A stretch of DNA of 64,000 nucleotides, taken from Escherichia coli (lineage in GTDB: Bacteria; Pseudomonadota; Gammaproteobacteria; Enterobacterales; Enterobacteriaceae). The first letter of the stretch is position 1. Each line of letters begins with the position of its first letter. The translations under genes and the position numbers were made by a program. Location of the stretch: NCBI RefSeq assembly GCF_041248615.1, contig NZ_CP158426.1; one strand, 5' to 3'. Positions 4,997 through 60,668 of the stretch are shown piece by piece. The notes under the pieces were generated by a model. It was given only the letters and a program-made list of their open reading frames with translations, did not search any database and was not told the origin of the DNA.

Positions 4997-5039
4997 CTTT
5001 CCTCCTATGACACCACACGCAATTCTGTATGTATAACCA

Positions 5040-5055
5040 CTGTTTATATTTACAG
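5040..5055 (-). promoter_or_regulatory. LexA-box-like motif (bottom strand CTGT-N8-ACAA) upstream of the small-protein/DinI-like pair
   Basis: Top strand TTGTTTATATTTACAG; on the coding strand this is CTGTAAATATAAACAA, one mismatch from the CTGT-N8-ACAG SOS box, about 45 bp upstream of the start codon. Confidence 0.3.
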
Positions 5056-5149
5056 TATATAATAATCCTACTGATGTAAAACGTTTTTTTACGCTTATCA
5101 GCCTGATATGCCTGGTATTATTAAGAGCACGAATTGTTAACCCGCGTAA

Positions 5150-8881: not shown

Positions 8882-8942
8882 TTCTCCTGAATTTAGATAA
8901 AGGGATGCCTGGCGGGTTTACGCCATTAATTTCATTAGTTGG

Positions 8943-9284
8943 TTAATTCGGCATGGTTAGCCGTCTGGGAAATAAGCTCACCACTGCACGAAAATGATTC
9001 ATTGCTTTAATCAACTCCCGCTTTTCGTCAGTGGTCAGCTCATTAATGCTGATGCTATGACGTTCAGCTGGAATTTTTGCCATAAAGAATATGGCAGCCA
9101 GTGCCCGTTTATTTTGTTCGCTATTAATATCCCGTGGATCACGCATATCTTTAATAAACCGTTCAAGCTCTGACTCAATATTCAGACCAAAAACTTTCGC
9201 CCTTAACTCCGCAATGTGATTAAGTCCATTCAGGCGTTCACCGGGGCTTAATGGAACAGTCGCCGCAGCGCCTTCAATAGCCAT
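8943..9284 (-). CDS. Hypothetical phage early protein
   Basis: 113-codon ORF in the early operon; start uncertain. Confidence 0.4.
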   Translation of the reverse strand: MAIEGAAATVPLSPGERLNGLNHIAELRAKVFGLNIESELERFIKDMRDPRDINSEQNKRALAAIFFMAKIPAERHSISINELTTDEKRELIKAMNHFRAVVSLFPRRLTMPN

Positions 9285-9448
9285 TTGTTCCCCCGTTTTT
9301 TCGTAGATAGTTCTGCCAGCAATTCATCTTGTGAACGGCACGGATGCCAGCGTTTACCATCCTCACCCATGATCCAGCCGTGACCGTAGTGCATTGCCGG
9401 GCTTTGTTTAACAAGCAGCGATGCAAATGATGGTTCTTTCGTAAGCAT
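9248..9448 (-). CDS. Hypothetical small phage early protein
   Basis: 66-codon ORF starting 8 nt after the CII stop with GAGGTG upstream; overlaps the next ORF, so the call is tentative. Confidence 0.3.
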   Translation of the reverse strand: MLTKEPSFASLLVKQSPAMHYGHGWIMGEDGKRWHPCRSQDELLAELSTKKRGNKWLLKALRRLFH

Positions 9449-9455
9449 AAGCACC

Positions 9456-9965
9456 TCACAGCAAACCGAATGAAGCACCGAGGCCAGTCACGGTATCAAC
9501 TGCACTCGCCATCGCAGGGTTAGCCTGTAAACGGGCCTGCAATGAAACAGCAGCCAGCGCCATCAGTCGTGTTACAGAGTTAATGCTGCTGATAGCATCA
9601 CGACGACCTGCACTGGTTTTTACATCGCCAGATACCGCACCTGCAGCAACACGCCCGATCTCTGCGGTTGCACTCATGACGTAATGCGGCAGTTTCTCTT
9701 TTGCTACCTCATTAATCGGAACACATGGCAGGCAGTGAATCTGTGCCAGAAAACCATCTACCAGCGTTGAATCTTCAGTCAGATCGGTAAGCAACCAAAT
9801 TTCTGGTGCGGTTAATAAATGAGGTTGAGCTGGGTTCAGTTTGTTCCGCAGAATCTGCACATTCATACCTGCACGTTCTGCCAGTTGCACCAGATTGTGG
9901 CGCAGTGCGAATGCACGACAGGCTTCATCAAAATGTGGATGTTTGGAAACTTGGTAATCAAACAT
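9456..9965 (-). CDS. CII-like lysogeny-establishment transcriptional activator (phage 186 CII family)
   Basis: N-terminus [24 protein letters not shown]...[25 protein letters not shown] closely matches the recalled 186 CII sequence; first gene-pair position of the lytic operon. Confidence 0.8.
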
Positions 9966-9997
9966 GGTCAATGCCTCTGATGTATTTCAGAATCGAA

Positions 9998-10219
9998 CTA
10001 ATTAAGGTTTAGATTGCATTCTGAAAGCGCATCAACGGTCATGGCTGCTATGTTGATCATCACTTTTTCGCGTTTTTTATCTTTGCGCAAACGGTGACGG
10101 ATAAGGCGTCCATCAGCCAACATGTCATTGATGGTATCGATGGACAGCCCTGTCAGCTCGCTATAGCGTTCAATAGTCACATGAGGCGTGGTAAGAGTGA
10201 TTGAAATGTTAGGTCTCAT
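9998..10219 (-). CDS. Apl/Cox-like excisionase and lytic-operon repressor
   Basis: 73-aa basic protein, first gene of the lytic operon and divergent from CI, as apl/cox in 186/P2. Confidence 0.55.
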
Positions 10220-10344
10220 GATGCAACATTCCTCGTTTAATGATGATTAATCAGGACGAATACGGATCGTTTGTATTTTGTGAACACCATAAACATACGA
10301 TCGCACAATGAAATCGTCAAGACAAAAGTTCACTTGGAGTGACC
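10220..10344. promoter_or_regulatory. Immunity switch region between apl and cI (expected pR/pL promoters and CI operators)
   Basis: 125-bp divergent intergenic region containing repeated ACGATCG-type elements; assignment by analogy to 186. Confidence 0.45.
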
Positions 10345-10914
10345 ATGAATTTGGAGAAAGGCGGACGAGGCGCTATAGAGCGCATGGTAGAAGCTTATGG
10401 ATTCAAGACTCGACAGGCGTTGTGCGATCATTTAGGAATCTCTAAAAGTACACTCGCCACACGCTACATGCGTGACTCATTCCCCGCAGAATGGGTAATC
10501 CAGTGCGCCCTTGAAACGGGCACCTCGCTTAATTGGCTCACAACCGGGCATGGTTCAAAGCAAACTTCAGGTAATACAAATACTATGGAAGTTGCTAAAT
10601 ATGTATTATCTGATGGGGCCTTGTGTGAAGACGGTTTTTATATTTTCGATAGGGGATTTCTACCGTCGGCATTCAAGAGTCTTTTTGTAATCACAGATAA
10701 TAATTCTGAATGTATTTGTGATAAGGAATTTGATGATATACGTGATGGTAAATGGGTAATAAGTATTGATGGTGAAATAACGATCCGTGACATTACTCGT
10801 TTACCCGGCGGAAGAATCTTCGTCGAGGGTGGAAACAGAGCGTTCGAATGCAAGATAGAAGACATTGAAATAATTGGTAAAATTATAAGTTTAACAGTCA
10901 AGTATGTTAAATAG
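10345..10914 (+). CDS. CI immunity repressor (phage 186 CI family)
   Basis: ERMVEAYGF...CALETGTSLNWLTTGHG...GKWVISIDGEITIRDITRLPGGRIFVEGGNRAFECKIEDIEIIGKII parallels the recalled 186 CI sequence; GGAG RBS before ATG at 10345 (track ORF starts at GTG 10339). Confidence 0.85.
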   Translation: MNLEKGGRGAIERMVEAYGFKTRQALCDHLGISKSTLATRYMRDSFPAEWVIQCALETGTSLNWLTTGHGSKQTSGNTNTMEVAKYVLSDGALCEDGFYIFDRGFLPSAFKSLFVITDNNSECICDKEFDDIRDGKWVISIDGEITIRDITRLPGGRIFVEGGNRAFECKIEDIEIIGKIISLTVKYVK

Positions 10915-10929
10915 TACCGGGAGGAAACT

Positions 10930-11121
10930 ATGCTTGGTAAGGTATTTTTTGTGGTTTTGTCATGTTCTTTGTTATTAAACCCACTAACTACCTATGCTAG
11001 AAATTATCCCTGTTCAGGGAAAAAGGGAGGTGTTTCTCACTGTACCTCAGATGGCAAATTCGTTTGCAATGATGGAACTATTAGTAAATCCAAAAAAATC
11101 TGTACTAAAAACTCACGATAA
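10930..11121 (+). CDS. Small secreted Cys-containing peptide (possible moron) between cI and int
   Basis: 63 codons; strong RBS GGGAGG 6 nt before ATG; N-terminal signal-peptide-like segment ([23 protein letters not shown]) followed by about 40 residues with four Cys and many Lys. Confidence 0.5.
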
Positions 11122-11309
11122 CTTTTGCTTTTATATCTGCGCCTAAAATAAAAATGAGCCGCAGGTTAACCGCAAAAGTTACATGCTCACATAGCAAAAA
11201 GAATAGCCAACTTAATTATGGCTTCAGTGAGATGTATGGTCGTAGGATTTCATACATTGACACTGGTTATACATACAGTGAAAATGCTCTCTACTGGAGG
11301 GCATTTTTT

Positions 11310-12362
11310 ATGGCAGTACGAAAACTCACCACAGGGAAATGGCTTTGCGAATGTTACCCCGCCGGACGTAATGGGCGTCGTGTGCGTAAACAATTCGCCA
11401 CCAAAGGCGAAGCACTGGCCTTCGAGCGATACACCATGGGGGAAATAGAAGCAAAGCCCTGGCTGGGCGAATCAGTGGATCGTCGGACACTGAAAGATAT
11501 GGTTGAGCTATGGTTCAAATTACATGGCAAATCTCTTACTGCCGGACAGCATGTCTACAACAAGCTGCTGTTGATGGTTGACGCCTTGGGAAATCCCCTT
11601 GCAACTGATCTCACCTCAAAAATGTTTGCTCACTATCGCGATAAACGCCTTACTGGTGAAATCTACTTCAGTGAAAAATGGAAGAAAGGAGCAAGCCCAG
11701 TTACTGTTAACCTGGAGCAAAGCCATCTAAGCAGCGTTTTCAGAGAACTTTCCCGCCTGGGTGAATGGACACTTCCAAACCCATTAGAGAAGATGCGCAA
11801 ATTCACTATCGCAGAAAAGGAAATGGCATGGCTTACACATGAGCAGATTATCGAATTACTGTCTGACTGCAAACGTCAGAACCCAATTCTGGCACTGGTG
11901 GTAAAAATATGTCTAAGTACAGGTGCACGTTGGCGAGAAGCAATCAATCTTGCTCGCTCACAGGTCACCAAGTACCGAATCACCTTTGTGAGAACGAAGG
12001 GTAAGAAAAACAGAAGCATCCCTATCAGTAAAGAGCTTTATGAAGAGATAATGGCGCTCGATGGGTTCAATTTCTTCACAGACTGCTATTTTCAATTTTT
12101 ATCCGTGATGGAAAAAACGTCTATCGTTCTCCCTCGCGGTCAACTGACACACGTTCTGCGCCATACGTTTGCGGCGCACTTCATGATGTCGGGTGGAAAC
12201 ATCTTGGCCTTACAAAAAATTCTCGGACATCACGATATAAAAATGACTATGCGTTATGCGCATCTGGCACCGGATCATTTGGAAACGGCGCTCCGTTTCA
12301 ATCCACTGGCAACGTTACCAAATGGCGACAAAGTGGCGGCAGCGGTTGGCATTACCCCGTAA
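11310..12362 (+). CDS. int: Phage tyrosine integrase
   Basis: Catalytic residues in TGARWREA, HVLRHTFAAH and MRYAHL; GGAGG RBS before ATG at 11310 (track ORF starts upstream at 11154); last prophage gene, about 100 bp from host rcdA. Confidence 0.9.
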   Translation: MAVRKLTTGKWLCECYPAGRNGRRVRKQFATKGEALAFERYTMGEIEAKPWLGESVDRRTLKDMVELWFKLHGKSLTAGQHVYNKLLLMVDALGNPLATDLTSKMFAHYRDKRLTGEIYFSEKWKKGASPVTVNLEQSHLSSVFRELSRLGEWTLPNPLEKMRKFTIAEKEMAWLTHEQIIELLSDCKRQNPILALVVKICLSTGARWREAINLARSQVTKYRITFVRTKGKKNRSIPISKELYEEIMALDGFNFFTDCYFQFLSVMEKTSIVLPRGQLTHVLRHTFAAHFMMSGGNILALQKILGHHDIKMTMRYAHLAPDHLETALRFNPLATLPNGDKVAAAVGITP

Positions 12363-23941: not shown

Positions 23942-24328
23942 ATGGGTGTGTATAAGGCAAGACGATTCAGCCAAAGCACGAAAAAACTTGGTATTCACGA
24001 TAAAGTTCTCATGGCTGCCGCTGAAGAAGTGATGCAGGGCATATGGGAGGCTGATTTAGGTAGCGGTGTCATCAAAAAACGTTTACCCCTCCAACAAGGA
24101 AAGAGTGGTGGAGCCAGAACAATTATCTTTTTTAAATCAGCAAATCATGTGTTTTTTTATGATGGTTGGTCCAAGAGTGGTCTAAGCAGTAAAGGAACCA
24201 AAGAAATCGAAGATGATGAACTGGCGGCCTACAAAAAAATGGCAAATGCATTTCTGGCCTTTAGCAATAAGCAAATAGAGGATTTGATCGAAACTGGCTT
24301 TTTGATTGAGGTGAAAAATGAGCGATAA
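23942..24328 (+). CDS. HigB2-like (Gp49/RelE-superfamily) toxin of a type II toxin-antitoxin pair
   Basis: GSGVIKKRLPLQQGKSGGARTIIFF resembles the recalled HigB-2 core (GTGGLRKIR...GKRGGSRIIYYF); toxin-first order with an 11-nt overlap into an HTH gene; absent from this position in K-12 as recalled. Confidence 0.55.
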   Translation: MGVYKARRFSQSTKKLGIHDKVLMAAAEEVMQGIWEADLGSGVIKKRLPLQQGKSGGARTIIFFKSANHVFFYDGWSKSGLSSKGTKEIEDDELAAYKKMANAFLAFSNKQIEDLIETGFLIEVKNER

Positions 24329-24647
24329 ATTACAAATGATGCTGGAAGATGCAAAGGAACTGAATGCACTGGGCCTGATGTCTGATAGTGAAGTTGATGC
24401 CATTGCCGTCATGGTCAAAGCTCGTGAAGTCAGCGCCCGTATAGCCAAAGTCAAATCAATGACGGGTGAAGAGATCAAAGCCATCCGCACCCGATACGGC
24501 ATGTCACAATCCGTGCTGGCACATACAATGGGAATGTCAAAAGAAAGTGTCTCGAAATGGGAACGTAATGAAATAAAACCGAGCGGCCCGGCATTACGTA
24601 TTTTGAATACATTGGCAATAAAAGGGCCGGAAGTTTTTGCAAAGTAA
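24318..24647 (+). CDS. HigA-like XRE-family HTH antitoxin
   Basis: C-terminal helix-turn-helix (GMSQSVLAHTMGMSKESVSKWE); overlaps the toxin gene. Confidence 0.6.
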   Translation: MSDKLQMMLEDAKELNALGLMSDSEVDAIAVMVKAREVSARIAKVKSMTGEEIKAIRTRYGMSQSVLAHTMGMSKESVSKWERNEIKPSGPALRILNTLAIKGPEVFAK

Positions 24648-36251: not shown

Positions 36252-37000
36252 TGGCGGAACTCAGCGATCAGGAGATGTTGCGCTACAACCGGCAAATCAT
36301 TCTGCGCGGTTTTGATTTTGACGGTCAGGAGGCGCTAAAAGATTCTCGTGTGCTGATCGTCGGCCTCGGTGGACTTGGCTGTGCAGCTTCGCAGTATCTG
36401 GCAAGCGCCGGTGTCGGCAATCTGACACTGCTCGACTTCGACACGGTTTCGCTCTCGAATCTGCAACGCCAGACTCTGCACAGTGATGCCACGGTCGGGC
36501 AACCGAAGGTGGAATCCGCCCGTGACGCCCTGACGCGGATCAACCCACATATCGCGATTACACCCGTCAATGCACTGCTGGATGACGCAGAACTTGCAGC
36601 ATTGATTGCTGAACACGATCTGGTGCTCGATTGTACGGATAACGTTGCGGTACGCAATCAACTGAACGCAGGCTGTTTTGCCGCGAAGGTGCCGCTGGTT
36701 TCCGGCGCGGCAATTCGTATGGAAGGTCAAATCACGGTCTTCACTTATCAGGACGGCGAGCCTTGCTATCGCTGCCTTAGCCGTTTGTTTGGCGAGAACG
36801 CGTTAACCTGCGTAGAAGCAGGCGTGATGGCACCGTTGATCGGCGTAATTGGTTCGTTGCAGGCAATGGAAGCGATCAAACTGCTGGCAGGTTATGGCAA
36901 ACCGGCCAGCGGGAAAATCGTCATGTACGATGCGATGACCTGTCAGTTTCGCGAAATGAAACTGATGCTTAACCCGGGGTGTGAGGTGTGTGGGCAGTAA
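36251..37000 (+). CDS. moeB: Molybdopterin-synthase adenylyltransferase MoeB
   Basis: 249 aa, ThiF/MoeB fold (GLGGLG) and C-terminal CxxC pairs; synteny. Confidence 0.9.
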   Translation: MAELSDQEMLRYNRQIILRGFDFDGQEALKDSRVLIVGLGGLGCAASQYLASAGVGNLTLLDFDTVSLSNLQRQTLHSDATVGQPKVESARDALTRINPHIAITPVNALLDDAELAALIAEHDLVLDCTDNVAVRNQLNAGCFAAKVPLVSGAAIRMEGQITVFTYQDGEPCYRCLSRLFGENALTCVEAGVMAPLIGVIGSLQAMEAIKLLAGYGKPASGKIVMYDAMTCQFREMKLMLNPGCEVCGQ

Positions 37001-37086
37001 TTGCCACCTCAGGCCAGATAAGACGTAGCAGGCATCGGTGCACTCCGCCACGTCATCAGCAATTTATGAGGATGCAGAACGTCCGG

Positions 37087-37749
37087 TTAAATCGACGTTC
37101 TGCCAAACGCTCCCTGCCAGTCCTGCTCAAACTTCGCCACAGCGGCATCAACCGCCGGATAGCTAATCATCTGTTGTGCCACATCCAGCGGCAGAGTAAT
37201 TGATTCACACCCTGCCAGTAAGCAGTCCAGCGCCTGACGCGGGGTTTTGAAACTCGCGGCTAACACTTTCGCCTGCGGCGCATGCATTTTCAATAACTGG
37301 TGTAAGTCGGTCACAGTCTGAATACCGCTACCGCCCTGAGCATCAATACGATTAACGTAAGGCGCAACATATTCCGCACCTGCCAGCGCCGACAGTAGCC
37401 CTTGTGCTGCGCCATATACCGCGGTTCCCAGCGTCGGAATCCCTTCCGCTTTTAACATCTTAATAGCTGCCAGCCCCTCAGCGGTCACCGGAACTTTCAC
37501 CACGATATCCGCAATAATAGAACGCAATTTACGTGCGTCATTCACCATCCCTTCAGCAGTGGTAGCCATTACCTGGGCAAACAGACGCCCCTGACCGCCC
37601 ATCGCCTCGTGAAGTTGCGGAAGCACAACCTCCAGCGGTTTTTTACCCGCTGCGATAATGCTTGGGTTAGTGGTTACACCCGCCAGCGGAAAAATACGTG
37701 ACAGCGCCTTCACCGCAACAACGTCTGAAGTATCCAGATACAGTTCCAT
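37087..37749 (-). CDS. fsaA: Fructose-6-phosphate aldolase 1 FsaA
   Basis: 220 aa from MELYLDTSD; the track ORF is a longer upstream extension. Confidence 0.9.
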
Positions 37750-37879
37750 AACCATCCTCAAAATGTACTTTTTGTCTGAATGTAGACTATCACGGGAAAA
37801 CTCTCTGAACAGTTGACGCACATCAATCCAGCTTTCATTCGAAAGTATTTTAATGTTTGAACGAAACAGAGAGGCAACT

Positions 37880-38779
37880 ATGATTTTCAATATTCAACGC
37901 TACTCGACCCATGATGGCCCCGGTATCCGCACGGTCGTATTTCTTAAAGGCTGTTCGCTGGGCTGCCGCTGGTGTCAGAACCCGGAAAGCCGCGCCCGCA
38001 CGCAGGATCTGTTGTATGACGCACGACTGTGTCTGGAAGGCTGCGAGCTGTGCGCTAAGGCCGCGCCGGACGTGATTGAGCGCGCGTTGAATGGTTTGCT
38101 TATTCATCGGGAAAAGTTAACCCCGGAGCATCTGACGGCGCTAACCGACTGCTGCCCGACACAGGCGTTAACCGTGTGTGGTGAAGTGAAAAGCGTTGAG
38201 GAGATCATGGCGACCGTTTTGCGCGATAAACCGTTTTACGATCGCAGCGGCGGCGGCTTAACGCTTTCTGGCGGTGAACCCTTTATGCAGCCGGAAATGG
38301 CGATGGCGCTTCTGCAAGCCAGCCACGAGGCAGGCATTCATACTGCGGTAGAAACCTGCCTGCATGTGCCGTGGAAATATATCGCCCCTTCTCTGCCCTA
38401 TATCGATCTGTTTCTTGCCGATTTAAAACACGTTGCCGACGCACCGTTTAAACAGTGGACCGACGGTAACGCCGCCAGGGTGCTGGATAATCTGAAAAAA
38501 CTCGCTGCGGCGGGGAAAAAAATCATCATCCGCGTACCGCTGATTCAGGGCTTTAACGCCGACGAAACCTCTGTGAAAGCCATTACCGATTTTGCCGCCG
38601 ACGAGCTGCACGTTGGCGAAATCCATTTCCTGCCCTACCACACGCTGGGCATCAACAAATATCACTTACTTAATCTGCCCTATGACGCCCCGGAACAACC
38701 GCTTGATGCGCCAGAACTGCTCGACTTTGCCCAGCAGTATGCCTGCCAGAAAGGGTTAACCGCGACCTTACGAGGATAA
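37880..38779 (+). CDS. pflE: Glycyl-radical enzyme activase PflE (YbiY)
   Basis: Radical-SAM CxxxCxxC (CSLGCRWC); GAGG RBS before ATG at 37880; synteny. Confidence 0.85.
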
Positions 38780-38784
38780 CAACC

Positions 38785-41217
38785 ATGACCACACTGAAAC
38801 TGGACACGCTCAGCGATCGCATTAAAGCGCACAAAAATGCGCTGGTGCATATTGTGAAACCGCCGGTCTGTACCGAGCGCGCGCAGCACTATACCGAGAT
38901 GTATCAACAACATCTCGACAAGCCCATTCCGGTACGTCGCGCGCTGGCACTGGCGCATCACCTGGCGAATCGCACCATCTGGATCAAGCACGATGAGTTG
39001 ATCATTGGCAACCAGGCAAGCGAAGTTCGCGCCGCGCCGATCTTCCCGGAATATACCGTCTCATGGATCGAAAAAGAGATCGATGATCTGGCAGATCGTC
39101 CCGGTGCTGGCTTTGCGGTGAGCGAAGAGAACAAACGCGTTCTGCATGAAGTGTGCCCGTGGTGGCGCGGTCAGACCGTACAGGATCGCTGCTACGGCAT
39201 GTTTACCGATGAGCAAAAAGGTCTGCTGGCGACCGGCATCATTAAAGCGGAAGGCAATATGACCTCCGGCGATGCGCACCTGGCGGTCAATTTCCCGCTG
39301 CTGCTGGAAAAAGGGCTTGATGGTCTGCGCGAGAAAGTAGCGGAACGTCGCTCGCGCATCAACCTGACGGTGCTGGAAGATTTACACGGTGAGCAATTCC
39401 TGAAAGCGATTGATATCGTGCTGGTGGCAGTCAGTGAACACATTGAACGTTTCGCTGCCCTGGCGCGTGAAATGGCCGCGACCGAAACCCGCGAAAGCCG
39501 TCGCGATGAACTGCTGGCGATGGCAGAAAACTGCGATCTTATCGCCCACCAACCGCCGCAGACTTTCTGGCAGGCGCTGCAACTGTGTTACTTCATCCAG
39601 TTGATTTTGCAGATTGAATCTAACGGTCACTCCGTATCTTTTGGTCGTATGGACCAGTATCTGTACCCGTATTATCGTCGCGACGTTGAACTCAACCAGA
39701 CGCTGGATCGTGAACACGCCATCGAGATGCTGCATAGCTGCTGGCTGAAATTGCTGGAAGTGAACAAGATCCGCTCCGGCTCGCACTCAAAAGCCTCTGC
39801 GGGAAGTCCGCTGTATCAGAACGTCACTATTGGCGGGCAAAATCTGGTTGATGGTCAACCAATGGACGCGGTGAATCCACTCTCTTACGCGATCCTTGAA
39901 TCCTGCGGTCGCCTGCGTTCCACTCAGCCTAACCTCAGCGTGCGTTACCATGCAGGAATGAGCAACGATTTCCTCGACGCCTGCGTACAGGTGATCCGTT
40001 GCGGCTTCGGGATGCCGGCGTTCAACAACGACGAAATCGTGATCCCGGAATTTATTAAACTCGGTATTGAACCGCAGGACGCTTACGACTATGCAGCGAT
40101 TGGTTGTATCGAAACCGCCGTCGGTGGCAAATGGGGCTATCGCTGTACCGGCATGAGCTTTATCAACTTCGCCCGCGTGATGCTGGCGGCGCTGGAAGGC
40201 GGTCGTGATGCCACCAGCGGCAAAGTGTTCCTGTCACAAGAAAAAGCGTTGTCGGCAGGTAACTTCAACAACTTCGATGAAGTGATGGACGCGTGGGATA
40301 CGCAAATCCGTTACTACACCCGCAAATCAATCGAAATTGAGTATGTCGTCGACACCATGCTGGAAGAGAACGTACACGATATTCTCTGCTCGGCGCTGGT
40401 GGATGACTGTATTGAGCGAGCGAAAAGTATCAAGCAAGGCGGCGCGAAATATGACTGGGTTTCTGGCCTGCAGGTCGGTATTGCCAACCTCGGCAACAGC
40501 CTGGCGGCAGTGAAGAAACTGGTGTTTGAACAGGGCGCGATTGGTCAGCAACAGCTGGCTGCCGCACTGGCGGATGACTTCGACGGCCTGACTCATGAGC
40601 AACTGCGTCAGCGGCTGATTAACGGTGCGCCGAAGTACGGCAACGACGATGATACTGTCGATACGCTGCTGGCTCGCGCTTATCAGACCTATATCGACGA
40701 ACTGAAACAGTACCATAACCCGCGCTACGGTCGTGGTCCGGTTGGCGGCAACTATTACGCGGGTACGTCGTCTATCTCCGCTAACGTACCGTTTGGCGCG
40801 CAAACTATGGCAACGCCGGACGGGCGTAAAGCCCACACCCCGCTGGCAGAAGGCGCAAGCCCGGCTTCCGGTACTGATCATCTTGGCCCTACTGCGGTCA
40901 TTGGCTCAGTGGGTAAACTGCCTACGGCAGCGATTCTCGGCGGCGTGTTGCTCAACCAGAAACTGAATCCGGCAACGCTGGAGAACGAATCTGACAAGCA
41001 GAAACTAATGATCCTGCTGCGTACCTTCTTTGAAGTGCATAAAGGCTGGCATATTCAGTACAACATCGTTTCCCGCGAAACGCTGCTGGAGGCGAAAAAA
41101 CATCCCGATCAGTATCGCGATCTGGTAGTGCGCGTCGCGGGCTATTCCGCCTTCTTCACCGCGCTCTCTCCAGACGCTCAGGACGATATCATCGCCCGTA
41201 CTGAACATATGCTGTAA
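38785..41217 (+). CDS. pflF: Glycyl-radical enzyme PflF (YbiW), PFL-like
   Basis: 810 aa with C-terminal glycyl-radical motif ([10 protein letters not shown]); synteny. Confidence 0.85.
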
Positions 41218-41362
41218 TCTCCTCAGCCCGGCGGCGGCGTCGCCGGGCCAAATCATTCACACCATCAATTTTAGCCTCGCTTTCATTCGAAATATAATTT
41301 GTGCTCTGCGTCACATTGTTATTACACTGTTACGGTTTCATTTTCGAGCCAGGAGCACACCT

Positions 41363-42178
41363 ATGAGCGTAAAAGTTATCGTCACAGACATGGACGGTAC
41401 TTTTCTTAACGACGCCAAAACGTACAACCAACCACGTTTTATGGCGCAATATCAGGAACTGAAAAAGCGCGGCATTAAGTTCGTTGTCGCCAGCGGTAAT
41501 CAGTATTACCAGCTTATTTCGTTCTTTCCTGAGCTAAAGGATGAGATCTCTTTTGTCGCGGAAAACGGCGCACTGGTTTACGAACATGGCAAGCAGTTGT
41601 TCCACGGCGAACTGACCCGACATGAATCGCGGATTGTAATTGGCGAGTTGCTAAAAGATAAGCAACTCAATTTTGTCGCCTGCGGTCTGCAAAGTGCATA
41701 TGTCAGCGAAAATGCCCCCGAAGCATTCGTCGCACTGATGGCAAAACACTACCATCGCCTGAAACCTGTAAAAGATTATCAGGAGATTGACGACGTACTG
41801 TTCAAGTTTTCGCTCAACCTGCCGGATGAACAAATCCCGTTAGTGATCGACAAACTGCACATAGCGCTCGATGGCATTATGAAACCCGTCACCAGTGGTT
41901 TTGGCTTTATCGACCTGATTATTCCCGGTCTACATAAAGCAAACGGTATTTCGCGGTTACTGAAACGCTGGGATCTGTCACCGCAAAATGTGGTAGCGAT
42001 TGGCGACAGCGGTAACGATGCGGAGATGCTGAAAATGGCGCGTTATTCCTTTGCGATGGGCAATGCTGCGGAAAACATTAAACAAATCGCCCGTTACGCT
42101 ACCGATGATAATAATCATGAAGGCGCGCTGAATGTGATTCAGGCTGTGCTGGATAACACATCCCCTTTTAACAGCTGA
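41363..42178 (+). CDS. ybiV: Sugar phosphatase YbiV (HAD Cof-type)
   Basis: 271 aa, DMDGTF motif; paralogous to ybjI in this window. Confidence 0.85.
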
Positions 42179-42186
42179 CCTCTCTA

Positions 42187-42209
42187 CCGGAGCCATGCGC
42201 TCCGGTTTT
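42187..42209 (+). terminator. Rho-independent terminator of ybiV (CCGGAGC-loop-GCTCCGG + TTTT)
   Basis: Hairpin and T-run read directly after the stop. Confidence 0.55.
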
Positions 42210-42329
42210 CCCTTCTTTTTACATCCTGTACATCACATCAAATCATTAAACTTGCATTAACTTATTTATAACTTATATTGTCACATGCAAATCATCATAG
42301 TTTCGAATGAAAGTTAATGCGAGGTGGTT

Positions 42330-43595
42330 ATGGCTTCTACTTTTACCAGCGACACATTGCCTGCCGATCACAAAGCAGCTATCCGTCAGATGAAGCACGC
42401 GCTGCGGGCACAGCTTGGCGACGTCCAGCAGATCTTTAATCAGCTAAGCGATGACATTGCTACGCGAGTGGCTGAAATCAACGCACTCAAAGCACAGGGC
42501 GATGCCGTCTGGCCGGTGCTGTCTTATGCCGATATCAAAGCAGGTCATGTTACTGCAGAGCAGCGCGAACAGATTAAACGTCGCGGTTGTGCGGTGATAA
42601 AAGGCCATTTCCCCCGCGAACAAGCGCTAGGCTGGGATCAGTCGATGCTGGACTATCTGGACCGCAACCGCTTTGACGAGGTCTACAAAGGCCCCGGCGA
42701 TAATTTCTTCGGGACGCTCAGCGCTTCACGTCCCGAGATTTACCCCATCTACTGGTCGCAGGCGCAAATGCAGGCCCGCCAGAGTGAAGAAATGGCGAAT
42801 GTGCAGTCGTTTCTCAATCGTCTGTGGACATTTGAAAGTGATGGAAAGCAATGGTTTAACCCGGATGTGAGCGTCATCTACCCTGACCGTATCCGCCGCC
42901 GTCCGCCCGGAACGACCTCCAAAGGTCTTGGAGCGCATACCGACTCCGGGGCGCTGGAACGCTGGCTGCTTCCAGCGTATCAGCACGTTTTCGCCAACGT
43001 CTTTAATGGCAATCTGGCGAAATACGATCCCTGGCATGCGGCACATCGTACGGAAGTTGAAGAGTACACGGTGGACAACACCACCAAATGTTCCGTGTTT
43101 CGGACATTCCAGGGCTGGACAGCGCTCTCTGATATGCTGCCTGGTCAGGGGCTGCTGCACGTCGTGCCCATTCCTGAAGCCATGGCGTACGTACTGTTAC
43201 GTCCGCTGCTTGATGATGTGCCGGAGGATGAACTGTGCGGCGTAGCGCCCGGAAGAGTATTGCCGGTATCAGAGCAATGGCATCCACTGTTAATTGAGGC
43301 GTTAACCAGCATTCCAAAACTCGAAGCCGGAGACTCCGTCTGGTGGCACTGCGACGTCATCCATTCCGTTGCCCCCGTTGAAAATCAACAGGGCTGGGGC
43401 AACGTGATGTACATTCCTGCGGCACCGATGTGCGAGAAAAATCTTGCCTACGCGCACAAGGTGAAGGCCGCACTGGAAAAAGGCGCATCGCCGGGCGACT
43501 TCCCGCGCGAGGACTATGAAACAAACTGGGAAGGACGCTTTACGCTTGCCGACCTCAACATTCACGGTAAGCGAGCGTTGGGAATCGACAGCTGA
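42330..43595 (+). CDS. ybiU: DUF1479-family protein YbiU
   Basis: 421 aa from MASTFTSD; synteny. Confidence 0.8.
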   Translation: MASTFTSDTLPADHKAAIRQMKHALRAQLGDVQQIFNQLSDDIATRVAEINALKAQGDAVWPVLSYADIKAGHVTAEQREQIKRRGCAVIKGHFPREQALGWDQSMLDYLDRNRFDEVYKGPGDNFFGTLSASRPEIYPIYWSQAQMQARQSEEMANVQSFLNRLWTFESDGKQWFNPDVSVIYPDRIRRRPPGTTSKGLGAHTDSGALERWLLPAYQHVFANVFNGNLAKYDPWHAAHRTEVEEYTVDNTTKCSVFRTFQGWTALSDMLPGQGLLHVVPIPEAMAYVLLRPLLDDVPEDELCGVAPGRVLPVSEQWHPLLIEALTSIPKLEAGDSVWWHCDVIHSVAPVENQQGWGNVMYIPAAPMCEKNLAYAHKVKAALEKGASPGDFPREDYETNWEGRFTLADLNIHGKRALGIDS

Positions 43596-44665
43596 GTGTC
43601 GTACAGCCCTTCCCGTTCCACGGCGGTGTTCCCTTTTCCTGGGCGAACCCGCCGCACTGACTCCCGCATCGCCAATCGTCCGTGCAGCAGCAGCGAGCCC
43701 ACCGGAGCATCCGGGCGAATCAGCCGCTGTTGCAACATTTGCACCGCTTCATTGCCTAGCTCATCGCGTGGCACATGCACAGCCGTCAGGGGAACATCCT
43801 CGATTGCCGCAAGGTTAAAGCCGTCGATACTCATCACCGAGACATCCTGTGGTACGCGCAGACCACGACGATGTAGCGCATTTACCGTTCCCGCCGCCAT
43901 AAAATCCCCGCCGACCAGAAACGCCGTCGGCAACGTCTTGCCATTGGCGGCATCCAGCCACGCTCCGACCTTTTCTTCCGCTTCTTTAGCGCTAAAACTG
44001 CTGATATTCAGCAAATGACGGTCATGGTGAAAGGCCAGATTATGCTGACGCCATGATTCTTTAATCCCTGCAAACCGCTGCTCCATAGTGTAGCGGCGCA
44101 GGCACATCACATTCATCACCTCCCGGTGACCCATTTCAAACAGATAGCGGGCGGCGAACGCGCCAATTAACCGATGGTCCGGCGCAATCGCCGGGAGGCG
44201 CATTCGTTCATCACGGCAGTTGATCAGCACACAAGGCTTAGCGAGATCGGCGGCCAGATCATGGATGTGCGGATCGTCAATCCCCAGCAGGATCGCCGCC
44301 TGCGTATCTGCTTCATTCATCCGCGAGAGAAATAGCGCGGGATCGCTGTCAAACTCCTCCAGCGCGCAGTAACGCAGCCGCACTTCATGCGGCGATAACG
44401 CTTTGCTGATGCTCTGGATCACACGGTAATAAAAGATATCAGATCGTTGGTCAAAAGCGCGTTGCGGCGCGAAAATAATCAGGTTGTTCAGCAACATACG
44501 ACCTGCTGCCATGCCATCCATCACGCCCAACTCACGCGCGCAGGCCAGCACCTGTTCGCGAGCGCGTGCACTGGTATTCGCTTTGCCAGCCAGCACCCGC
44601 GAAACCGTACTCGGCGATAGCCCGGTACGTGCGGCGATATCGGCGATTTTCAGCTTCTTGTCCAT
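43562..44665 (-). CDS. LacI-family transcriptional regulator (accessory island)
   Basis: N-terminal HTH (KIADIAARTGLSPSTVSRVLAG) and periplasmic-binding-like effector domain; start at MDKKLKIADIA; 3' end overlaps ybiU by 34 bp. Confidence 0.75.
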   Translation of the reverse strand: MDKKLKIADIAARTGLSPSTVSRVLAGKANTSARAREQVLACARELGVMDGMAAGRMLLNNLIIFAPQRAFDQRSDIFYYRVIQSISKALSPHEVRLRYCALEEFDSDPALFLSRMNEADTQAAILLGIDDPHIHDLAADLAKPCVLINCRDERMRLPAIAPDHRLIGAFAARYLFEMGHREVMNVMCLRRYTMEQRFAGIKESWRQHNLAFHHDRHLLNISSFSAKEAEEKVGAWLDAANGKTLPTAFLVGGDFMAAGTVNALHRRGLRVPQDVSVMSIDGFNLAAIEDVPLTAVHVPRDELGNEAVQMLQQRLIRPDAPVGSLLLHGRLAMRESVRRVRPGKGNTAVEREGLYDTQLSIPNARLP

Positions 44666-44959
44666 TTTGTGATCTGCCTCTAATTCGGAAATGACAGAAT
44701 TTTCATGAGCAAAAAAGCCCATTCTGTCTGGCATTAAATCCATTTCAGTAATGTATATCAGTCACTCATGGAAAAACGTGCACAAAACCCGCTTTCTTTC
44801 GCTTTTAGGGTCTCTTACTGTGAATTGGTAGAACAACTTCCATACAAAAATAATGGGAAAACGAACAATAAAGACTTTATTTATCAAAAAGTTAAAAGTG
44901 GTGTGACAACTCCATTCTGACGTTGCCGCACAAACCCTATACCATTCTGTGGAGTGCAT

Positions 44960-46261
44960 ATGAGTCAGGGTATCAATAACGATATGACTGCCAGTAAACC
45001 GCGCCATATCGTCAAAAATCTGCGTTGGTGGATACTGGTCCTTTTTTTGCTCGGTGTTACTGTCAACTACATCACGCGTAACTCGCTGGGTATTCTCGCC
45101 CCCGAACTGAAAAGCAACCTGGGGATTACCACCGAACAATATTCCTGGATTGTAGGTGCTTTCCAGCTCGCCTATACCCTATTCCAACCGTTGTGTGGAT
45201 GGCTGATTGACGTCATTGGCCTCAAACTGGGCTTTATGATCTGCGCGGGACTGTGGGCGCTGGCCTGTCTGATGCATGCGGGGGCGGGAAACTGGGTACA
45301 TCTGGCGCTGTTGCGCTTCTTTATGGGCGGTGCGGAAGCCGCGGCACCCCCAGCAAACGCCAAAACCATCGGTGAATGGTTTCCAAAATCAGAACGCCCG
45401 ATCGCCGCAGGCTGGGCAGGCGTCGGTTTTTCCATCGGTGCCATGCTGGCCCCACCGATTATCTATTTTGCCCACGCTTCATTCGGCTGGCAGGGTGCAT
45501 TTATGTTCACTGGCATCCTGGCGATGCTGTGGGTGGTGCTGTGGTGGGCGTTCTATCACAACCCGGATAAGCATCCTAACCTCAGCAAAGCCGAGCTGGA
45601 CTTTATCCGCCAGGATAACGAAGCGCCCCCTGTCAAGTTACCCTTTCTGACCGCACTGAAAACCGTAGGTAAAAATAAACGCTTTTACGGTATCGCTATC
45701 CCGGCCTTTATGGCAGAACCGGCGTGGGCGGTGATGAGTTTCTGGGTTCCGCTATACCTGTCCAAAACCTATGGCATGGACCTGAAGCAGATCGCATTAT
45801 TCGCCTGGTTGCCGTTCCTCGCCGCTGATCTTGGCAGTATTGCCAGCGGCTATCTGACCAAACTTTACACCCGCCTGTTTGGGCTGAGTCGTGTGAACTC
45901 CGTTGTCGCATCATCGGTCAGTGGCGCATTCCTGATGGTTTCGCTGGCGGTGATGGCCTTTACCAATAACCCGTATATCGCCATCGTCCTTATTTCCATC
46001 GGCGGCTTCGGTCACCAGATCATCTCCTGCATGCTGAGCGCACTGGTGGTGGAATCCTTCGACAAAGGTCAGATGGCCACTGTTAACGGCATGCGCGGTT
46101 CTGCCGCGTGGATCGCAAGTTTCCTGTTCTCCCTGATTATCGGGGTTACCGCTGACAAAATCGGCTTTAACCCCCTGTTTATCGCCATGGGCTTCTTTGA
46201 CCTGATTGGTGCTTTCTTCCTGGTCACCTTTATTGCTGAACGTCGCGCAAAACGCGCCTGA
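44960..46261 (+). CDS. MFS transporter of the anion:cation symporter type (ExuT/hexuronate-transporter-like)
   Basis: Twelve hydrophobic segments; blocks resembling the recalled ExuT sequence (FYGIAIPAFMAEPAW, IALFAWLPFLAADLG, TNNPYIAIVLISIGGFGHQ); GGAG RBS before ATG at 44960. Confidence 0.7.
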   Translation: MSQGINNDMTASKPRHIVKNLRWWILVLFLLGVTVNYITRNSLGILAPELKSNLGITTEQYSWIVGAFQLAYTLFQPLCGWLIDVIGLKLGFMICAGLWALACLMHAGAGNWVHLALLRFFMGGAEAAAPPANAKTIGEWFPKSERPIAAGWAGVGFSIGAMLAPPIIYFAHASFGWQGAFMFTGILAMLWVVLWWAFYHNPDKHPNLSKAELDFIRQDNEAPPVKLPFLTALKTVGKNKRFYGIAIPAFMAEPAWAVMSFWVPLYLSKTYGMDLKQIALFAWLPFLAADLGSIASGYLTKLYTRLFGLSRVNSVVASSVSGAFLMVSLAVMAFTNNPYIAIVLISIGGFGHQIISCMLSALVVESFDKGQMATVNGMRGSAAWIASFLFSLIIGVTADKIGFNPLFIAMGFFDLIGAFFLVTFIAERRAKRA

Positions 46262-46275
46262 GAGTGGATGTAAAC

Positions 46276-48639
46276 ATGAAAACGCTGAAAAACTGGACCC
46301 TGCACAAACAGTCTGCCCACCACGTTGAACTGCTGGTCGATGGCCAGCATATCCTGTGCCTGTACGTGCTGGAAGAAAATCTGTTCCGCGTGCTGTTAAA
46401 ACGCAAAGGCGAGCTGGCGCTGGATCGCACCTGGAGTATTGCTCCGGCGCAGGATGTGCCATGGGAAGGGCGCAGCCGCGAAGATCTCAGCGGCTTTAGC
46501 CTGCCCGCGTGGACATTGATCCAGCACGACGACACCGTGGTTATCGCCACCGAGTCACTGCGTGCAACCGTTCACCAGCCGCTGTGGCTGGAGTGGCACT
46601 ATCGTAACAACGAAGGCGAATGGCTGCCGTTGGTGAATGACCGCCCGACCAGCGCTTATCTGCTGAATGCCCACGGCGATGGCGTGGCACACTATCAGAG
46701 CCGTCGTAAAGATGAACGCTTTTATGGCCTCGGAGATAAAGCCGGCGACCTGCAACGCAACGGTAAACGTTACGAGATGCGTAACCTCGACGCGATGGGC
46801 TACAACGCCGTTAGTACTGACCCGCTGTACAAACACATTCCATTCACCATCACCCGCCGCGATGACATTAGCTTCGGCCTGTTTTATGACAACCTCAGCA
46901 GCTGCTGGCTGGATCTGGGCAACGAGATCGACAACTACCACACCGCCTATCGCCGCTGGCAGGCGGAAGCGGGTGATATCGACTACTACCTGTTTACCGG
47001 CGAACGCGTACTTGATATCACCAAATCCTTCGTACGCCTGACCGGAAAAACCCTGTTCGGACCGAAATGGAGCCTGGGCTACAGCGGTTCAACTATGCAC
47101 TACACCGATGCGCCGGACGCACAAAATCAGTTGATGAACTTTATCCGCCTGTGTGAAGAACATGCAATTCCCTGCGATTCGTTCCAGCTCTCTTCCGGTT
47201 ATACCTCAATTAACGGCAAACGCTATGTGTTCAACTGGAACTACGAAAAAGTGCCGCAGCCGAAAGTGATGAGCCAGGCATTTCACAATGCTGGTTTGCA
47301 CCTGGCCGCCAATATCAAGCCGTGCCTGTTGCAGGATCACCCACGCTATAACGAAGTGGCAGAAAGAGGACTGTTCATCCGTGATTCAGAAACAGATGAA
47401 CCAGAACGTTCCAGCTTCTGGGATGACGAAGGTTCTAACCTCGACTTTACTAATCCGCAGACCATCCAGTGGTGGCAGGAAGGCGTGACCACACAGCTTC
47501 TGGAGATGGGTATCGACTCCACCTGGAACGACAACAACGAATTCGAAGTATGGGACGGTGAAGCACGCTGTCACGGCTTTGGTCAGACGATCGCGATCAA
47601 ACATATTCGCCCAGTGATGCCACTGCTGATGATGCGAGCCTCGATGGAAGCCCAGCAGCGTTTCGCTCCGGAAAAACGTCCGTACTTGATCTCCCGCTCC
47701 GGCTGCGCGGGAATGCAGCGCTACGTGCAGACCTGGAGTGGCGATAACCGCACTAGCTGGGACACTCTACGCTACAACACCCGCATGGGTCTGGGGATGA
47801 GCCTCTCCGGGCTGTATAACCTCGGTCACGACGTCGGCGGTTTCTCCGGTGATAAGCCGGACCCGGAACTGTTTGTACGCTGGGTACAAAACGGCGTGAT
47901 GCATCCGCGCTTTACGATTCACTCATGGAACGATGACCATACCGTAAACGAACCGTGGATGTATCCGGGCGTCACTCCGGCGATCCGCAGCGCTATTGAG
48001 TTGCGCTATCGCCTGCTGCCCTACTTTTATACCCTGATGTGGCAGGCATACGCCGATGATGAACCAATGCTACGTCCGACTTTCCTTGACCACGAGCACG
48101 ACGTTCAGACTTTTGAAGAGTGTGATGACTTCCTGCTTGGTCGCGATATTTTGGTTGCCAGCGTCGTAGAGCAAGGCGAGCGCCAGCGCCGTGTATGGCT
48201 GCCAGATAACGAAACTGGCTGGTACGATTTCTACAACGGCGAATGGTTCAGTGGCGGTCAGTGGATCACCCTCGACGCACCGCTGGAGAAACTGCCGCTG
48301 ATGGTGCGTGCCGGGGCTGGTCTACCGCTCAGCAAACGCATCACCTATGTGAGCGCAGAACAAGACGATACCCGCGAACTGAAACTGTTCCCGCTGAAAG
48401 GTGTGGGCACAACGTCCGGCCTGCTGTTTGAAGACGATGGCGAAAGCTGGGGCTACCAAACTGGTAATGCGCTTTGGGTGGAATGGGAAATGGTTTGCGA
48501 TGGGGCGACCATCAACCTGAAAGTCAACGCGCGCGGGGATTATCGACCTGCATGGAGTGCACTGAAAGTGTCATTACCAGTGGAAGAAAAACGCACGCTG
48601 CTGGTCAATGGTGTTGAAGGGAGTGAATGGATGCGTTAA
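46276..48639 (+). CDS. Glycoside hydrolase family 31 enzyme (alpha-glucosidase/alpha-xylosidase-like), substrate unknown
   Basis: About 790 aa with GH31-type nucleophile region (IDSTWNDNNEFEV) and acid/base region (LGHDVGGF); begins 15 nt after the transporter stop, so probably cotranscribed. Confidence 0.7.
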   Translation: MKTLKNWTLHKQSAHHVELLVDGQHILCLYVLEENLFRVLLKRKGELALDRTWSIAPAQDVPWEGRSREDLSGFSLPAWTLIQHDDTVVIATESLRATVHQPLWLEWHYRNNEGEWLPLVNDRPTSAYLLNAHGDGVAHYQSRRKDERFYGLGDKAGDLQRNGKRYEMRNLDAMGYNAVSTDPLYKHIPFTITRRDDISFGLFYDNLSSCWLDLGNEIDNYHTAYRRWQAEAGDIDYYLFTGERVLDITKSFVRLTGKTLFGPKWSLGYSGSTMHYTDAPDAQNQLMNFIRLCEEHAIPCDSFQLSSGYTSINGKRYVFNWNYEKVPQPKVMSQAFHNAGLHLAANIKPCLLQDHPRYNEVAERGLFIRDSETDEPERSSFWDDEGSNLDFTNPQTIQWWQEGVTTQLLEMGIDSTWNDNNEFEVWDGEARCHGFGQTIAIKHIRPVMPLLMMRASMEAQQRFAPEKRPYLISRSGCAGMQRYVQTWSGDNRTSWDTLRYNTRMGLGMSLSGLYNLGHDVGGFSGDKPDPELFVRWVQNGVMHPRFTIHSWNDDHTVNEPWMYPGVTPAIRSAIELRYRLLPYFYTLMWQAYADDEPMLRPTFLDHEHDVQTFEECDDFLLGRDILVASVVEQGERQRRVWLPDNETGWYDFYNGEWFSGGQWITLDAPLEKLPLMVRAGAGLPLSKRITYVSAEQDDTRELKLFPLKGVGTTSGLLFEDDGESWGYQTGNALWVEWEMVCDGATINLKVNARGDYRPAWSALKVSLPVEEKRTLLVNGVEGSEWMR

Positions 48640-60642: not shown

Positions 60643-60668
60643 GCCTCCCTTTCCCCCGAAAGGGAGGC
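60643..60668 (+). terminator. Stable hairpin after glnQ (GCCTCCCTTT-CCCCCG-AAAGGGAGGC)
   Basis: 10-bp perfect stem directly after the stop; no T-run, so termination efficiency is uncertain. Confidence 0.4.

Follow-up and report, generated by a model that had tools for sequence, protein, structure and literature searches.

The ybiY-ybiW operon of Escherichia coli: a literature-assigned 1,5-anhydroglucitol-6-phosphate ring-opening enzyme and a candidate FNR/YciT-type promoter

The region at positions 37880-41217 is, with high confidence, the ordinary ybiY-ybiW operon of E. coli, whose glycyl-radical enzyme YbiW opens the ring of 1,5-anhydroglucitol-6-phosphate (AG6P) and whose expression is modelled here as under anoxic control of an FNR/YciT type. 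A first-pass annotation of this DNA had described the substrate as not well established and had proposed a literature check for a documented YbiW substrate. Such an assignment exists. According to the summary in review PMC12441222, Ma et al. (J Am Chem Soc 2024;146:26187-97; pmid 39283600) assigned to YbiW the conversion of AG6P to 1-deoxyfructose-6-phosphate, and structures of the enzyme have been deposited (PDB 8id7 and 8yjn). The substrate is already known, and the pair is no longer an 'unknown substrate' case. The earlier doubt is understandable, because RefSeq protein names for YbiY and YbiW (i.e. in NZ_LT599825.1) are still generic and a preprint version dated May 2026 still refers to an ybiYW operon without functional annotation. 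The analysis itself established which genes these are, their catalytic motifs, their synteny and how far the motifs are conserved. What the enzyme acts on and forms, the binding of YciT and the anaerobic activity of the promoter are literature findings. We infer the mechanism at residue level (modelled on other glycyl-radical eliminases), the role of FNR as activator and that of the palindrome as YciT site.

The window (i.e. the whole 64-kb stretch of contig NZ_CP158426.1 that was analysed) carries both genes intact on the plus strand. The open reading frame of ybiY (pflE; 37880-38779) runs from an ATG at 37880 to a stop codon at 38777-38779 and encodes the 299-aa radical-SAM activase of YbiW. 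The 810-aa glycyl-radical enzyme itself, by literature the AG6P ring-opening enzyme, is encoded by ybiW (pflF; 38785-41217), which starts 5 nt after the ybiY stop codon; a GAGGA sequence resembling a Shine-Dalgarno element (38771-38775, plus strand), presumably serving ybiW, lies within the final ybiY codons. As previously annotated, the pair is divergent from fsaA (37087-37749, minus strand; NF009296, 454 bits), the gene for fructose-6-phosphate aldolase 1, the two start codons lying 130 bp apart. Downstream of ybiW lies ybiV (supH; 41363-42178, plus strand), encoding a HAD-IIB Cof-type sugar phosphatase (TIGR00099, 222 bits) that matches PDB entries 1rlm and 2hf2, both named 'Sugar phosphatase supH', and a terminator-like hairpin follows at 42186-42206. 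This context, with fsaA divergent and ybiV and ybiU downstream, is that of ybiYW in K-12.

A 100% identical sequence was present in NZ_LT599825.1 (E. coli NRZ14408), for which RefSeq gives ybiY and ybiW the same coordinates. The 5.3-kb ybiYW stretch was found in 5425 of 5426 complete E. coli genomes, bearing out the earlier description of the pair as conserved core content. Across Enterobacterales a divergent fsaA adjoined ybiYW in 62 of 80 loci, and this pairing was retained even in genera without moeB, ybiV and ybiU at the locus. The aldolase link is not universal, because Klebsiella and Raoultella carry ybiYW without a neighbouring fsaA. In Yersinia, ybiY-ybiW sits between sgrR, encoding a glucose-phosphate stress regulator, and sgrS, encoding its small RNA.

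Profile searches agreed with the annotation of a PFL-like glycyl-radical enzyme and its activase. YbiW scored 1407.9 bits against NCBIfam TIGR01774 (cut-off 678.2), placing it among the PFL2/glycerol-dehydratase-type eliminases, and contained the Pfam domains PFL-like and Gly_radical (112.6 bits). YbiY scored 369.4 bits against TIGR02494 (glycyl-radical enzyme activating protein; cut-off 174) and contained Radical_SAM and Fer4_12. As expected of an adjacent cognate activase, YbiY has a CX3CX2C motif (i.e. CSLGCRWC, residues 25-32), and it carries a Cys-rich insert (C51, C55, C58, C91, C92 and C100) that is absent from PflA. Comparison of active sites with characterised glycyl-radical enzymes, as had been proposed, showed that Gly786, Cys441 and Glu443 are kept and that the Cys-Cys pair of pyruvate formate-lyase is missing. 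Gly786 lies in an RVAGY sequence satisfying the glycyl radical motif RVxG[FWY]; Cys441 and Glu443 belong to a GCIE sequence at 440-443, a single Cys followed by Glu (GCxE). Cys441 aligned with Cys433 of PDB 1r8w and with the catalytic Cys pair of PflB (column Cys420), where PflB has Cys-Cys and YbiW has Gly-Cys.

These residues bear on whether YbiW could be a pyruvate (or 2-ketoacid) formate-lyase that yields acyl-CoA and formate in fermentation. Its names point that way: the K-12 protein is a 'putative pyruvate formate lyase' in RefSeq, a near-identical homologue (PDB 6xs4) is named 'Formate C-acetyltransferase', and the Pfam domain is PFL-like. Against them, YbiW fell far below the equivalog cut-offs for formate-lyases (TIGR01255, 160.9 versus 994.2 bits; NF007437, 580.5 versus 1109 bits), identity to PflB was only 26%, Gly-Cys-Ile-Glu replaces the catalytic Cys-Cys-Val-Ser of PflB, and the literature, as summarised in PMC12441222, assigns a different reaction. 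Formate-lyase activity is accordingly extremely improbable.

Full-length matches were obtained to 8id7 and 8yjn ('Probable dehydratase YbiW'; 1853 bits). After the YbiW entries and 6xs4, the next PDB matches were 1r8w (547.6 bits), a B12-independent glycerol dehydratase, 9rco (507 bits), an unnamed glycyl radical protein, and 5i2a (505.9 bits), a diol dehydratase. The closest relatives of other characterised function thus suggest a small-diol dehydratase acting on glycerol or 1,2-propanediol, and His164, Ser282, Cys433 and Glu435 of 1r8w all have YbiW equivalents (His165, Ser283, Cys441 and Glu443, respectively). In the published structure of 1r8w, His164, Ser282, Glu435 and Asp447 are reported to bind glycerol, Asp447 being one of the ligands. 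YbiW keeps the His, Ser and Glu of this set but has Gly456 in the Asp447 column, beside a 2-residue insertion, which implies a reshaped, larger pocket. Moreover, the genes that accompany ybiW encode a sugar-phosphate aldolase and a sugar phosphatase rather than members of a dehydratase pathway, and AG6P is the substrate assigned in the literature (PMC12441222, in summary). A small-diol substrate is therefore very unlikely.

AG6P ring opening remains the preferred reading. As relayed by PMC12441222 from Ma et al. 2024, the AG6P reaction needs the glycyl radical, E. coli can grow on 1,5-anhydroglucitol (1,5-AG) by the YbiW pathway, and PflD is the enzyme for the mannitol epimer, 1,5-anhydromannitol-6-phosphate. 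The activity is reported for the K-12 enzyme, and the assignment is drawn from this review summary and from deposited structures whose PDB names say no more than 'Probable dehydratase'. By analogy with other glycyl-radical eliminases, YbiY, by means of its [4Fe-4S] cluster and S-adenosylmethionine, would remove a hydrogen from YbiW Gly786, giving a glycyl radical expected to be stable and oxygen-sensitive. During catalysis the radical would pass to Cys441, whose thiyl radical would take a hydrogen from AG6P (i.e. 1-deoxyglucose-6-phosphate); Glu443 may then act as general base, with elimination of the pyranose C-O bond and opening of the ring to 1-deoxyfructose-6-phosphate. FsaA reportedly cleaves this product, which would give glyceraldehyde-3-phosphate for glycolysis and hydroxyacetone, and a GldA step is said to follow, by which hydroxyacetone would become 1,2-propanediol. 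The net outcome is fermentation of 1,5-AG by E. coli.

AG6P cleavage could be real and yet serve mainly to detoxify a dead-end analogue of glucose-6-phosphate rather than to supply carbon and energy. This would fit the position of ybiY-ybiW between stress genes in Yersinia, the HAD sugar phosphatase gene ybiV that follows ybiW under the same operator (see below), and the toxicity of AG6P in humans, where a phosphatase removes it (PMC12441222). Growth on 1,5-AG by this pathway, as the same review summarises it, argues for carbon supply, and we consider detoxification unlikely to be the main role, although the one role does not preclude the other.

The promoter was compared among 80 orthologous loci, of which 79 entered the alignment. 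The ATG at 37880 was kept in 79/79 aligned loci. An alternative in-frame ATG upstream, at 37853, would give a 308-aa YbiY; this start was rejected, as it sits in a conserved -10 hexamer and is ATC in genera outside Escherichia. The hexamer concerned (TTTAAT, 37849-37854, plus strand; at least 90% conserved) overlaps the ATG at 37853 and is the inferred -10 element of the ybiY promoter, with a predicted transcription start at approximately 37861. Centred 41.5 nt upstream of this start is a predicted FNR-type box, TTGACgcacATCAA (37813-37826, plus strand), whose half-sites match TTGAT-N4-ATCAA at 9 of 10 positions, the left half-site being TTGAC. The pattern TTGAYNNNNATCAA was matched nowhere else in the 64 kb. 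As 0.5 chance matches are expected in 64 kb, the significance of the box rests on its position and conservation. In 76 of 79 orthologous loci, a box with 8 or more matches at the 10 half-site positions occurs at -67 to -78 relative to the ybiY ATG, and its 4-nt spacer varies freely among the 79. The -10 hexamer is likewise kept across 76 of 79 loci. The distance from the box centre to the beginning of the -10 element is 29.5 nt; this spacing, with a centre near -41.5, is the geometry of class II FNR promoters, and on sequence positions ybiY has that layout.

Two reporter-assay preprints bear on this arrangement. The ybiYW promoter was active only anaerobically, and an unnamed activator acted at about -20 relative to a predicted start, which the authors suspect to be misplaced; their motif scan named no factor for the site. 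The FNR-type box probably explains this anaerobic activator. If the preprint start lies approximately 20 nt upstream of 37861, the preprint positions -5 and -20 fall on the palindrome described below and on the FNR box, respectively. A generic sigma-70 scan returned four sites versus 4.2 expected in shuffled sequence and missed the proposed ybiY promoter, as would be anticipated where the -35 element is poor and transcription depends on an activator. No acceptable CRP site (TGTGA-N6-TCACA) was seen in a by-eye check of the fsaA-ybiY spacer. Among the papers searched, no text linked FNR and ybiY; databases or supplements may already record FNR control.

The FNR box and the -10 element flank a 16-bp palindrome, GCTTTCATTCGAAAGT (37831-37846, plus strand), which reads ACTTTCATTCGAAAGT in K-12 and most genera. 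It was at least 90% conserved in the 79-locus alignment, and 73 of 80 loci carried the motif ahead of ybiY. Further copies were found on the plus strand upstream of ybiV (CTTTCATTCGAAAT, 41280-41293; kept in 52 of 59 loci, where it lies 79-84 nt ahead of the start of ybiV) and, in inverted orientation, upstream of ybiU (GTTTCGAATGAAAG, 42300-42313; kept in 54 of 55 loci). Of 183 motif matches in 933 kb, 179 fell within 150 nt upstream of ybiY, ybiV or ybiU, nearly all at fixed offsets. YciT is a DeoR-type repressor. ChIP-exo peaks of YciT have been reported upstream of ybiY/fsaA and at ybiV, and in the reporter-assay preprints ybiYp DNA pulled down YciT, with binding near -5 of the predicted start. 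The palindrome at 37831-37846 is probably the YciT operator, and ybiYW expression would be limited to anoxia by a class II FNR-dependent promoter overlaid by this operator.

It is conceivable, though we hold the idea only tentatively, that the CTTTC-N4-GAAAG promoters of ybiYW, ybiV and ybiU form one YciT regulon that handles 1,5-AG. Within such a regulon, YbiV could dephosphorylate the AG6P that accumulates while the oxygen-sensitive YbiW is inactive, which, if true, would give bacteria an equivalent of the metabolite repair carried out by G6PC3 in humans. YbiU (a DUF1479/Gig2-like protein with solved structures) could provide an oxygen-tolerant or accessory step, the inducer of YciT may be AG6P or a related sugar phosphate, and the missing anaerobic activator may be FNR. 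The Yersinia arrangement (i.e. sgrR / ybiYW-sgrS) may represent an independent wiring of YbiW into the sugar-phosphate stress response.

For a genome scan, ybiYW is a clean negative, being a core, intact and functionally assigned locus. How gut Enterobacteriaceae ferment 1,5-AG, a polyol from the diet that also serves as a clinical marker of glycaemia, is explained by the published work, which in addition supplies a physiological substrate for FsaA. The addition made here is modest: the conserved FNR box and shared palindromic operator provide a concrete promoter model, which would reconcile the two preprints on an unnamed anaerobic activator and a suspected misplaced start. The common operator also draws attention to ybiV and ybiU, the two genes of the cluster that still await an explanation.

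The locus was compared with four known systems. K-12 YbiW/YbiY (b0823/b0824; PDB 8id7, 8yjn) are identical to the present proteins at 806 of 810 and 296 of 299 positions, respectively, a full-length near-identity to the characterised K-12 protein that identifies this YbiW as its orthologue. The YbiW substitutions (E184K, H474R, P484S and D769E) are conservative-looking and none affects Gly786, Cys441 or Glu443; YbiY has three substitutions. K-12 shares the neighbours moeAB, fsaA, ybiV and ybiU and an identical FNR-type box, whereas the promoter palindrome has G as its outermost base here and A in K-12, and a LacI-MFS-GH31 island, present in 577 of 5426 genomes, lies between ybiU and ybiT here but not in K-12. 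The GH31 gene was considered as an alpha-1,4-glucan lyase supplying anhydro-sugars and was rejected as unsupported; the best solved relatives of its product are glucosidase II and bacterial alpha-glucosidases, and nothing ties it to ybiW.

PflB/PflA share with YbiW/YbiY the glycyl radical domain and radical-SAM activation but differ in overall sequence (26% identity for PflB), in a Cys-Cys pair versus Cys-x-Glu and in the absence of the Cys-rich insert from PflA. The Clostridium butyricum glycerol dehydratase 1r8w belongs to the same TIGR01774 fold family, with aligned Cys/Glu and Gly loops and equivalents of His165 and Ser283; it differs in its C3 diol substrate, in performing dehydration rather than opening of a cyclic ether, and in having Asp447 where YbiW has Gly456 and an insertion. 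PflD/PflC (b3951/b3952; PDB 8yjo) are of the same enzyme class and, in the summary of PMC12441222, form the same product. PflD and YbiW have GC[IV]E and RVAGYSAFF motifs in common, and PflD/PflC are also clustered with an Fsa aldolase gene, fsaB. In contrast, PflD is only 39% identical to YbiW and acts on the C2 epimer, and its cluster contains its own PTS components (frwCBD, ptsA) and gldA, with the enzyme gene preceding that of the activase.

Two co-directional genes were read as ORFs on the + strand of the window at 37880-41217. The radical-SAM activase gene ybiY (pflE) extends from an ATG at 37880 to a stop codon at 38777-38779 (299 aa), with an alternative in-frame ATG at 37853 that would give a 308-aa product. 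The glycyl-radical enzyme gene ybiW (pflF; 38785..41217, + strand) encodes 810 aa and is separated from ybiY by a gap of 5 nt, with a GAGGA sequence within the final codons of ybiY. The gene fsaA (37087..37749) is encoded on the opposite strand, its start being 130 bp away from that of ybiY. The first-pass annotation was correct on these ORF sizes, on the divergence from fsaA and on the pairing of enzyme and activase. Across the window, the sequence matches the chromosome of E. coli NRZ14408 (NZ_LT599825.1) with 100% identity, and RefSeq places ybiY and ybiW there at exactly the same coordinates. The 5.3-kb stretch was found in 5425 of 5426 complete E. coli genomes, confirming the core-genome status previously assigned to the locus, which is intact and already known. 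The copy carried by this strain (37000-42300) diverges from those of other E. coli to an unusual degree: no more than two of the 5425 genomes matched at 99% or above, and the next best match was 98.6%. Coding changes are few. The divergence probably reflects lineage or recombination.

A substrate for YbiW has been published. As summarised in a 2025 review (PMC12441222), Ma et al. (J Am Chem Soc 2024;146:26187-97) described phosphorylation of both 1,5-anhydroglucitol (1,5-AG) and 1,5-anhydromannitol by a PTS, followed by glycyl radical-dependent cleavage of the respective 6-phosphates by YbiW and PflD to yield 1-deoxyfructose-6-phosphate; this pathway enables growth of E. coli and many gut bacteria on 1,5-AG. 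Structures are deposited for YbiW (PDB 8id7 and 8yjn) and PflD (8yjo). Whilst the identification of the genes stands, the earlier description of the substrate as poorly established is outdated: the kind of well-documented assignment that would overturn it now exists, with 1,5-anhydroglucitol-6-phosphate (AG6P) as the substrate of YbiW (Ma et al. 2024, as reviewed in PMC12441222). The lag in annotation is real: the RefSeq product name is still 'glycyl radical protein' and a preprint version of May 2026 still describes the ybiYW operon as functionally unannotated.

Conservation was examined using one genome per species, giving at least 588 relatives. The best 80 of these (at least 588) were all from Enterobacterales and 85-99% identical to YbiW, whose conservation far exceeds that of YbiY (64-97%) and FsaA (68-97%). 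Among these best 80 loci, ybiY was always directly 5' of ybiW and a divergent fsaA was present in 62. FsaA or FsaB reportedly splits 1-deoxyfructose-6-phosphate into glyceraldehyde-3-phosphate and hydroxyacetone, and the latter is said to be converted to 1,2-propanediol by GldA. A functional tie between the aldolase FsaA and the radical enzyme YbiW is supported by the retention of fsaA beside ybiYW in genera with no moeB, ybiV or ybiU in the vicinity (Serratia, Buttiauxella, Brenneria, Rouxiella and Mangrovibacter). No fsaA was found at the ybiYW site in Klebsiella or Raoultella within the 80 loci. Orthologous loci L031, L036, L038, L039, L041, L044 and L045 (from Klebsiella, Raoultella and, for L045, one Enterobacter sp.) contain ybiY-ybiW without an adjoining fsaA, with moeB as the upstream neighbour and a perfect or near-perfect FNR-type box; the aldolase step in these genomes must be encoded elsewhere or handled differently.

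The fsaA-ybiY spacer contains an FNR-type box, TTGACgcacATCAA (37813-37826), the sole match to the pattern TTGAYNNNNATCAA in 64 kb (0.5 expected by chance). A box in which eight or more of the 10 half-site positions match was located 67-78 nt 5' of the ybiY ATG in 76 of 79 orthologous loci, the half-sites being retained and the 4-nt spacer freely variable. Two further blocks were at least 90% conserved in the alignment, i.e. a palindrome (37831-37846) and TTTAAT (37849-37854), a putative -10 hexamer. The distance from box centre to hexamer is 29.5 nt, which is the geometry of class II FNR promoters and would place the ybiY transcription start near 37861. The ATG at 37853 is upstream of this putative start, shares bases with the -10 hexamer and lacks conservation beyond Escherichia; the 308-aa form of YbiY was therefore rejected and the start codon at 37880 is supported. 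A reporter-assay preprint described a ybiYW promoter that was active only anaerobically. The DeoR-type regulator YciT was recovered on its DNA and assigned to a position near -5, and for an activator footprint near -20 no candidate factor was given. According to a second preprint, the predicted ybiYW start may be misplaced. With a predicted start ~20 nt 5' of 37861, the -5 position would coincide with the palindrome and the -20 position with the FNR box, an agreement that points to FNR as the probable missing anaerobic activator and to the palindrome as a candidate YciT operator. A literature text search yielded nothing that connects FNR with ybiY.

The palindrome, ACTTTCATTCGAAAGT, has G as its first base in this strain and conforms to the motif CTTTC-N4-GAAAG. 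Core copies with the same ATTC/GAAT spacer were present upstream of ybiV (41280-41293) and, inverted, upstream of ybiU (42300-42313), with a looser copy upstream of ybiO (60649-60662). Across the 80 loci, the motif was upstream of ybiY in 73 of 80, ybiV in 52 of 59 and ybiU in 54 of 55 cases, and 179 of 183 matches in 933 kb were within 150 nt upstream of these three genes. Offsets were nearly all fixed and the ybiV and ybiU copies were conserved across genera. Published ChIP-exo data place YciT upstream of ybiY/fsaA, ybiV and ybiO, and a yciT mutant exhibited altered expression of ybiV, ybiY and fsaA. The recurrence of the motif upstream of ybiV, ybiU and ybiO suggests a single regulon, with YciT control probable, that includes YbiU, a DUF1479/Gig2-like protein whose structures are still named 'hypothetical'. 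YbiV is a HAD sugar phosphatase. Read-through from ybiYW into ybiV is plausible, as a GC-rich hairpin, GCCCGGCGGCGGCGTCGCCGGGC (41227-41249), 10 nt after the ybiW stop codon has no T-run and no terminator-like site with a T-rich tail occurs until after ybiV (42186-42206).

In Y. alsatica and Y. massiliensis, both the FNR box and the palindrome are missing from the pair. An sgrR orthologue, with 64% identity to SgrR of E. coli, is divergently placed beside this Yersinia pair, and an SgrS match lies immediately 3' of ybiW (orthologous loci L085, 2310-7433, and L086, 7452-7571), an arrangement already noted in 2009 for Y. enterocolitica. The enzyme appears to be wired into a sugar-phosphate stress circuit in Yersinia, which makes sense given that AG6P, the 2024 substrate, is a glucose-6-phosphate analogue. 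This arrangement and likeness motivate a reading in which YbiW mainly removes AG6P as a dead-end analogue, relieving sugar-phosphate stress, which we consider unlikely. They also motivate the tentative proposal, somewhat doubtful at present, that ybiYW forms one YciT-controlled set for handling 1,5-AG, which would also take in ybiV and ybiU. The loose ends of the locus are confined to the promoter model and to the unexplained neighbours under shared control.

An accessory island absent from K-12 (43562-48639) is situated between ybiU and ybiT and was detected in 577 of 5426 complete E. coli genomes. It encodes a minus-strand LacI-family regulator, an MFS transporter and a GH31 glycosidase of 787 aa. 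Among solved structures, the glycosidase is closest to alpha subunits of glucosidase II and to a bacterial GH31 alpha-glycosidase; no link of this protein to anhydro-sugars was found. The end of a P2-like prophage (1-12362; portal, replication endonuclease, Dam methylase, CI/CII and integrase genes) adjoins rcdA. Two cargo genes, annotated as a RES-family NAD+ phosphorylase (833-1987, - strand) and a P-loop NTPase (2350-4242, - strand), occupy a position at which genes for anti-phage defence are often found in P2-like phages, and are putative defence genes by analogy. A RelE/ParE-family toxin gene and an HTH antitoxin-like gene are annotated between rimO and dgcI (23942-24647).

YbiY matched TIGR02494 (369 bits), has its CX3CX2C motif at residues 25-32 and contains a Cys-rich insert (C51, C55, C58, C91, C92 and C100) that PflA lacks. 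YbiW differs from K-12 YbiW by four substitutions (E184K, H474R, P484S and D769E), matched the Pfam PFL-like and Gly_radical families and scored 1407.9 bits against NCBIfam TIGR01774 (cut-off 678). It fell below the cut-off of every equivalog model, including those for hydroxyproline dehydratase, sulfopropanediol dehydratase and choline TMA-lyase. Gly786, within RVAGY, is the radical-bearing residue, and the Cys loop is GCIE, with Cys441 and Glu443. YbiW is not a formate-lyase, in view of a score of 160.9 bits against the pyruvate formate-lyase equivalog (994 required) and of this loop, which is Cys-Cys-Val-Ser in PflB and GCVE in PflD. Together, the scores and residue alignments identify YbiW as an eliminase-type glycyl-radical enzyme with a predicted pocket unlike that of small-diol dehydratases: Cys433, Glu435, His164 and Ser282 of the B12-independent glycerol dehydratase (1r8w) align with Cys441, Glu443, His165 and Ser283 of YbiW, whereas Asp447 aligns with Gly456, alongside a two-residue insertion.
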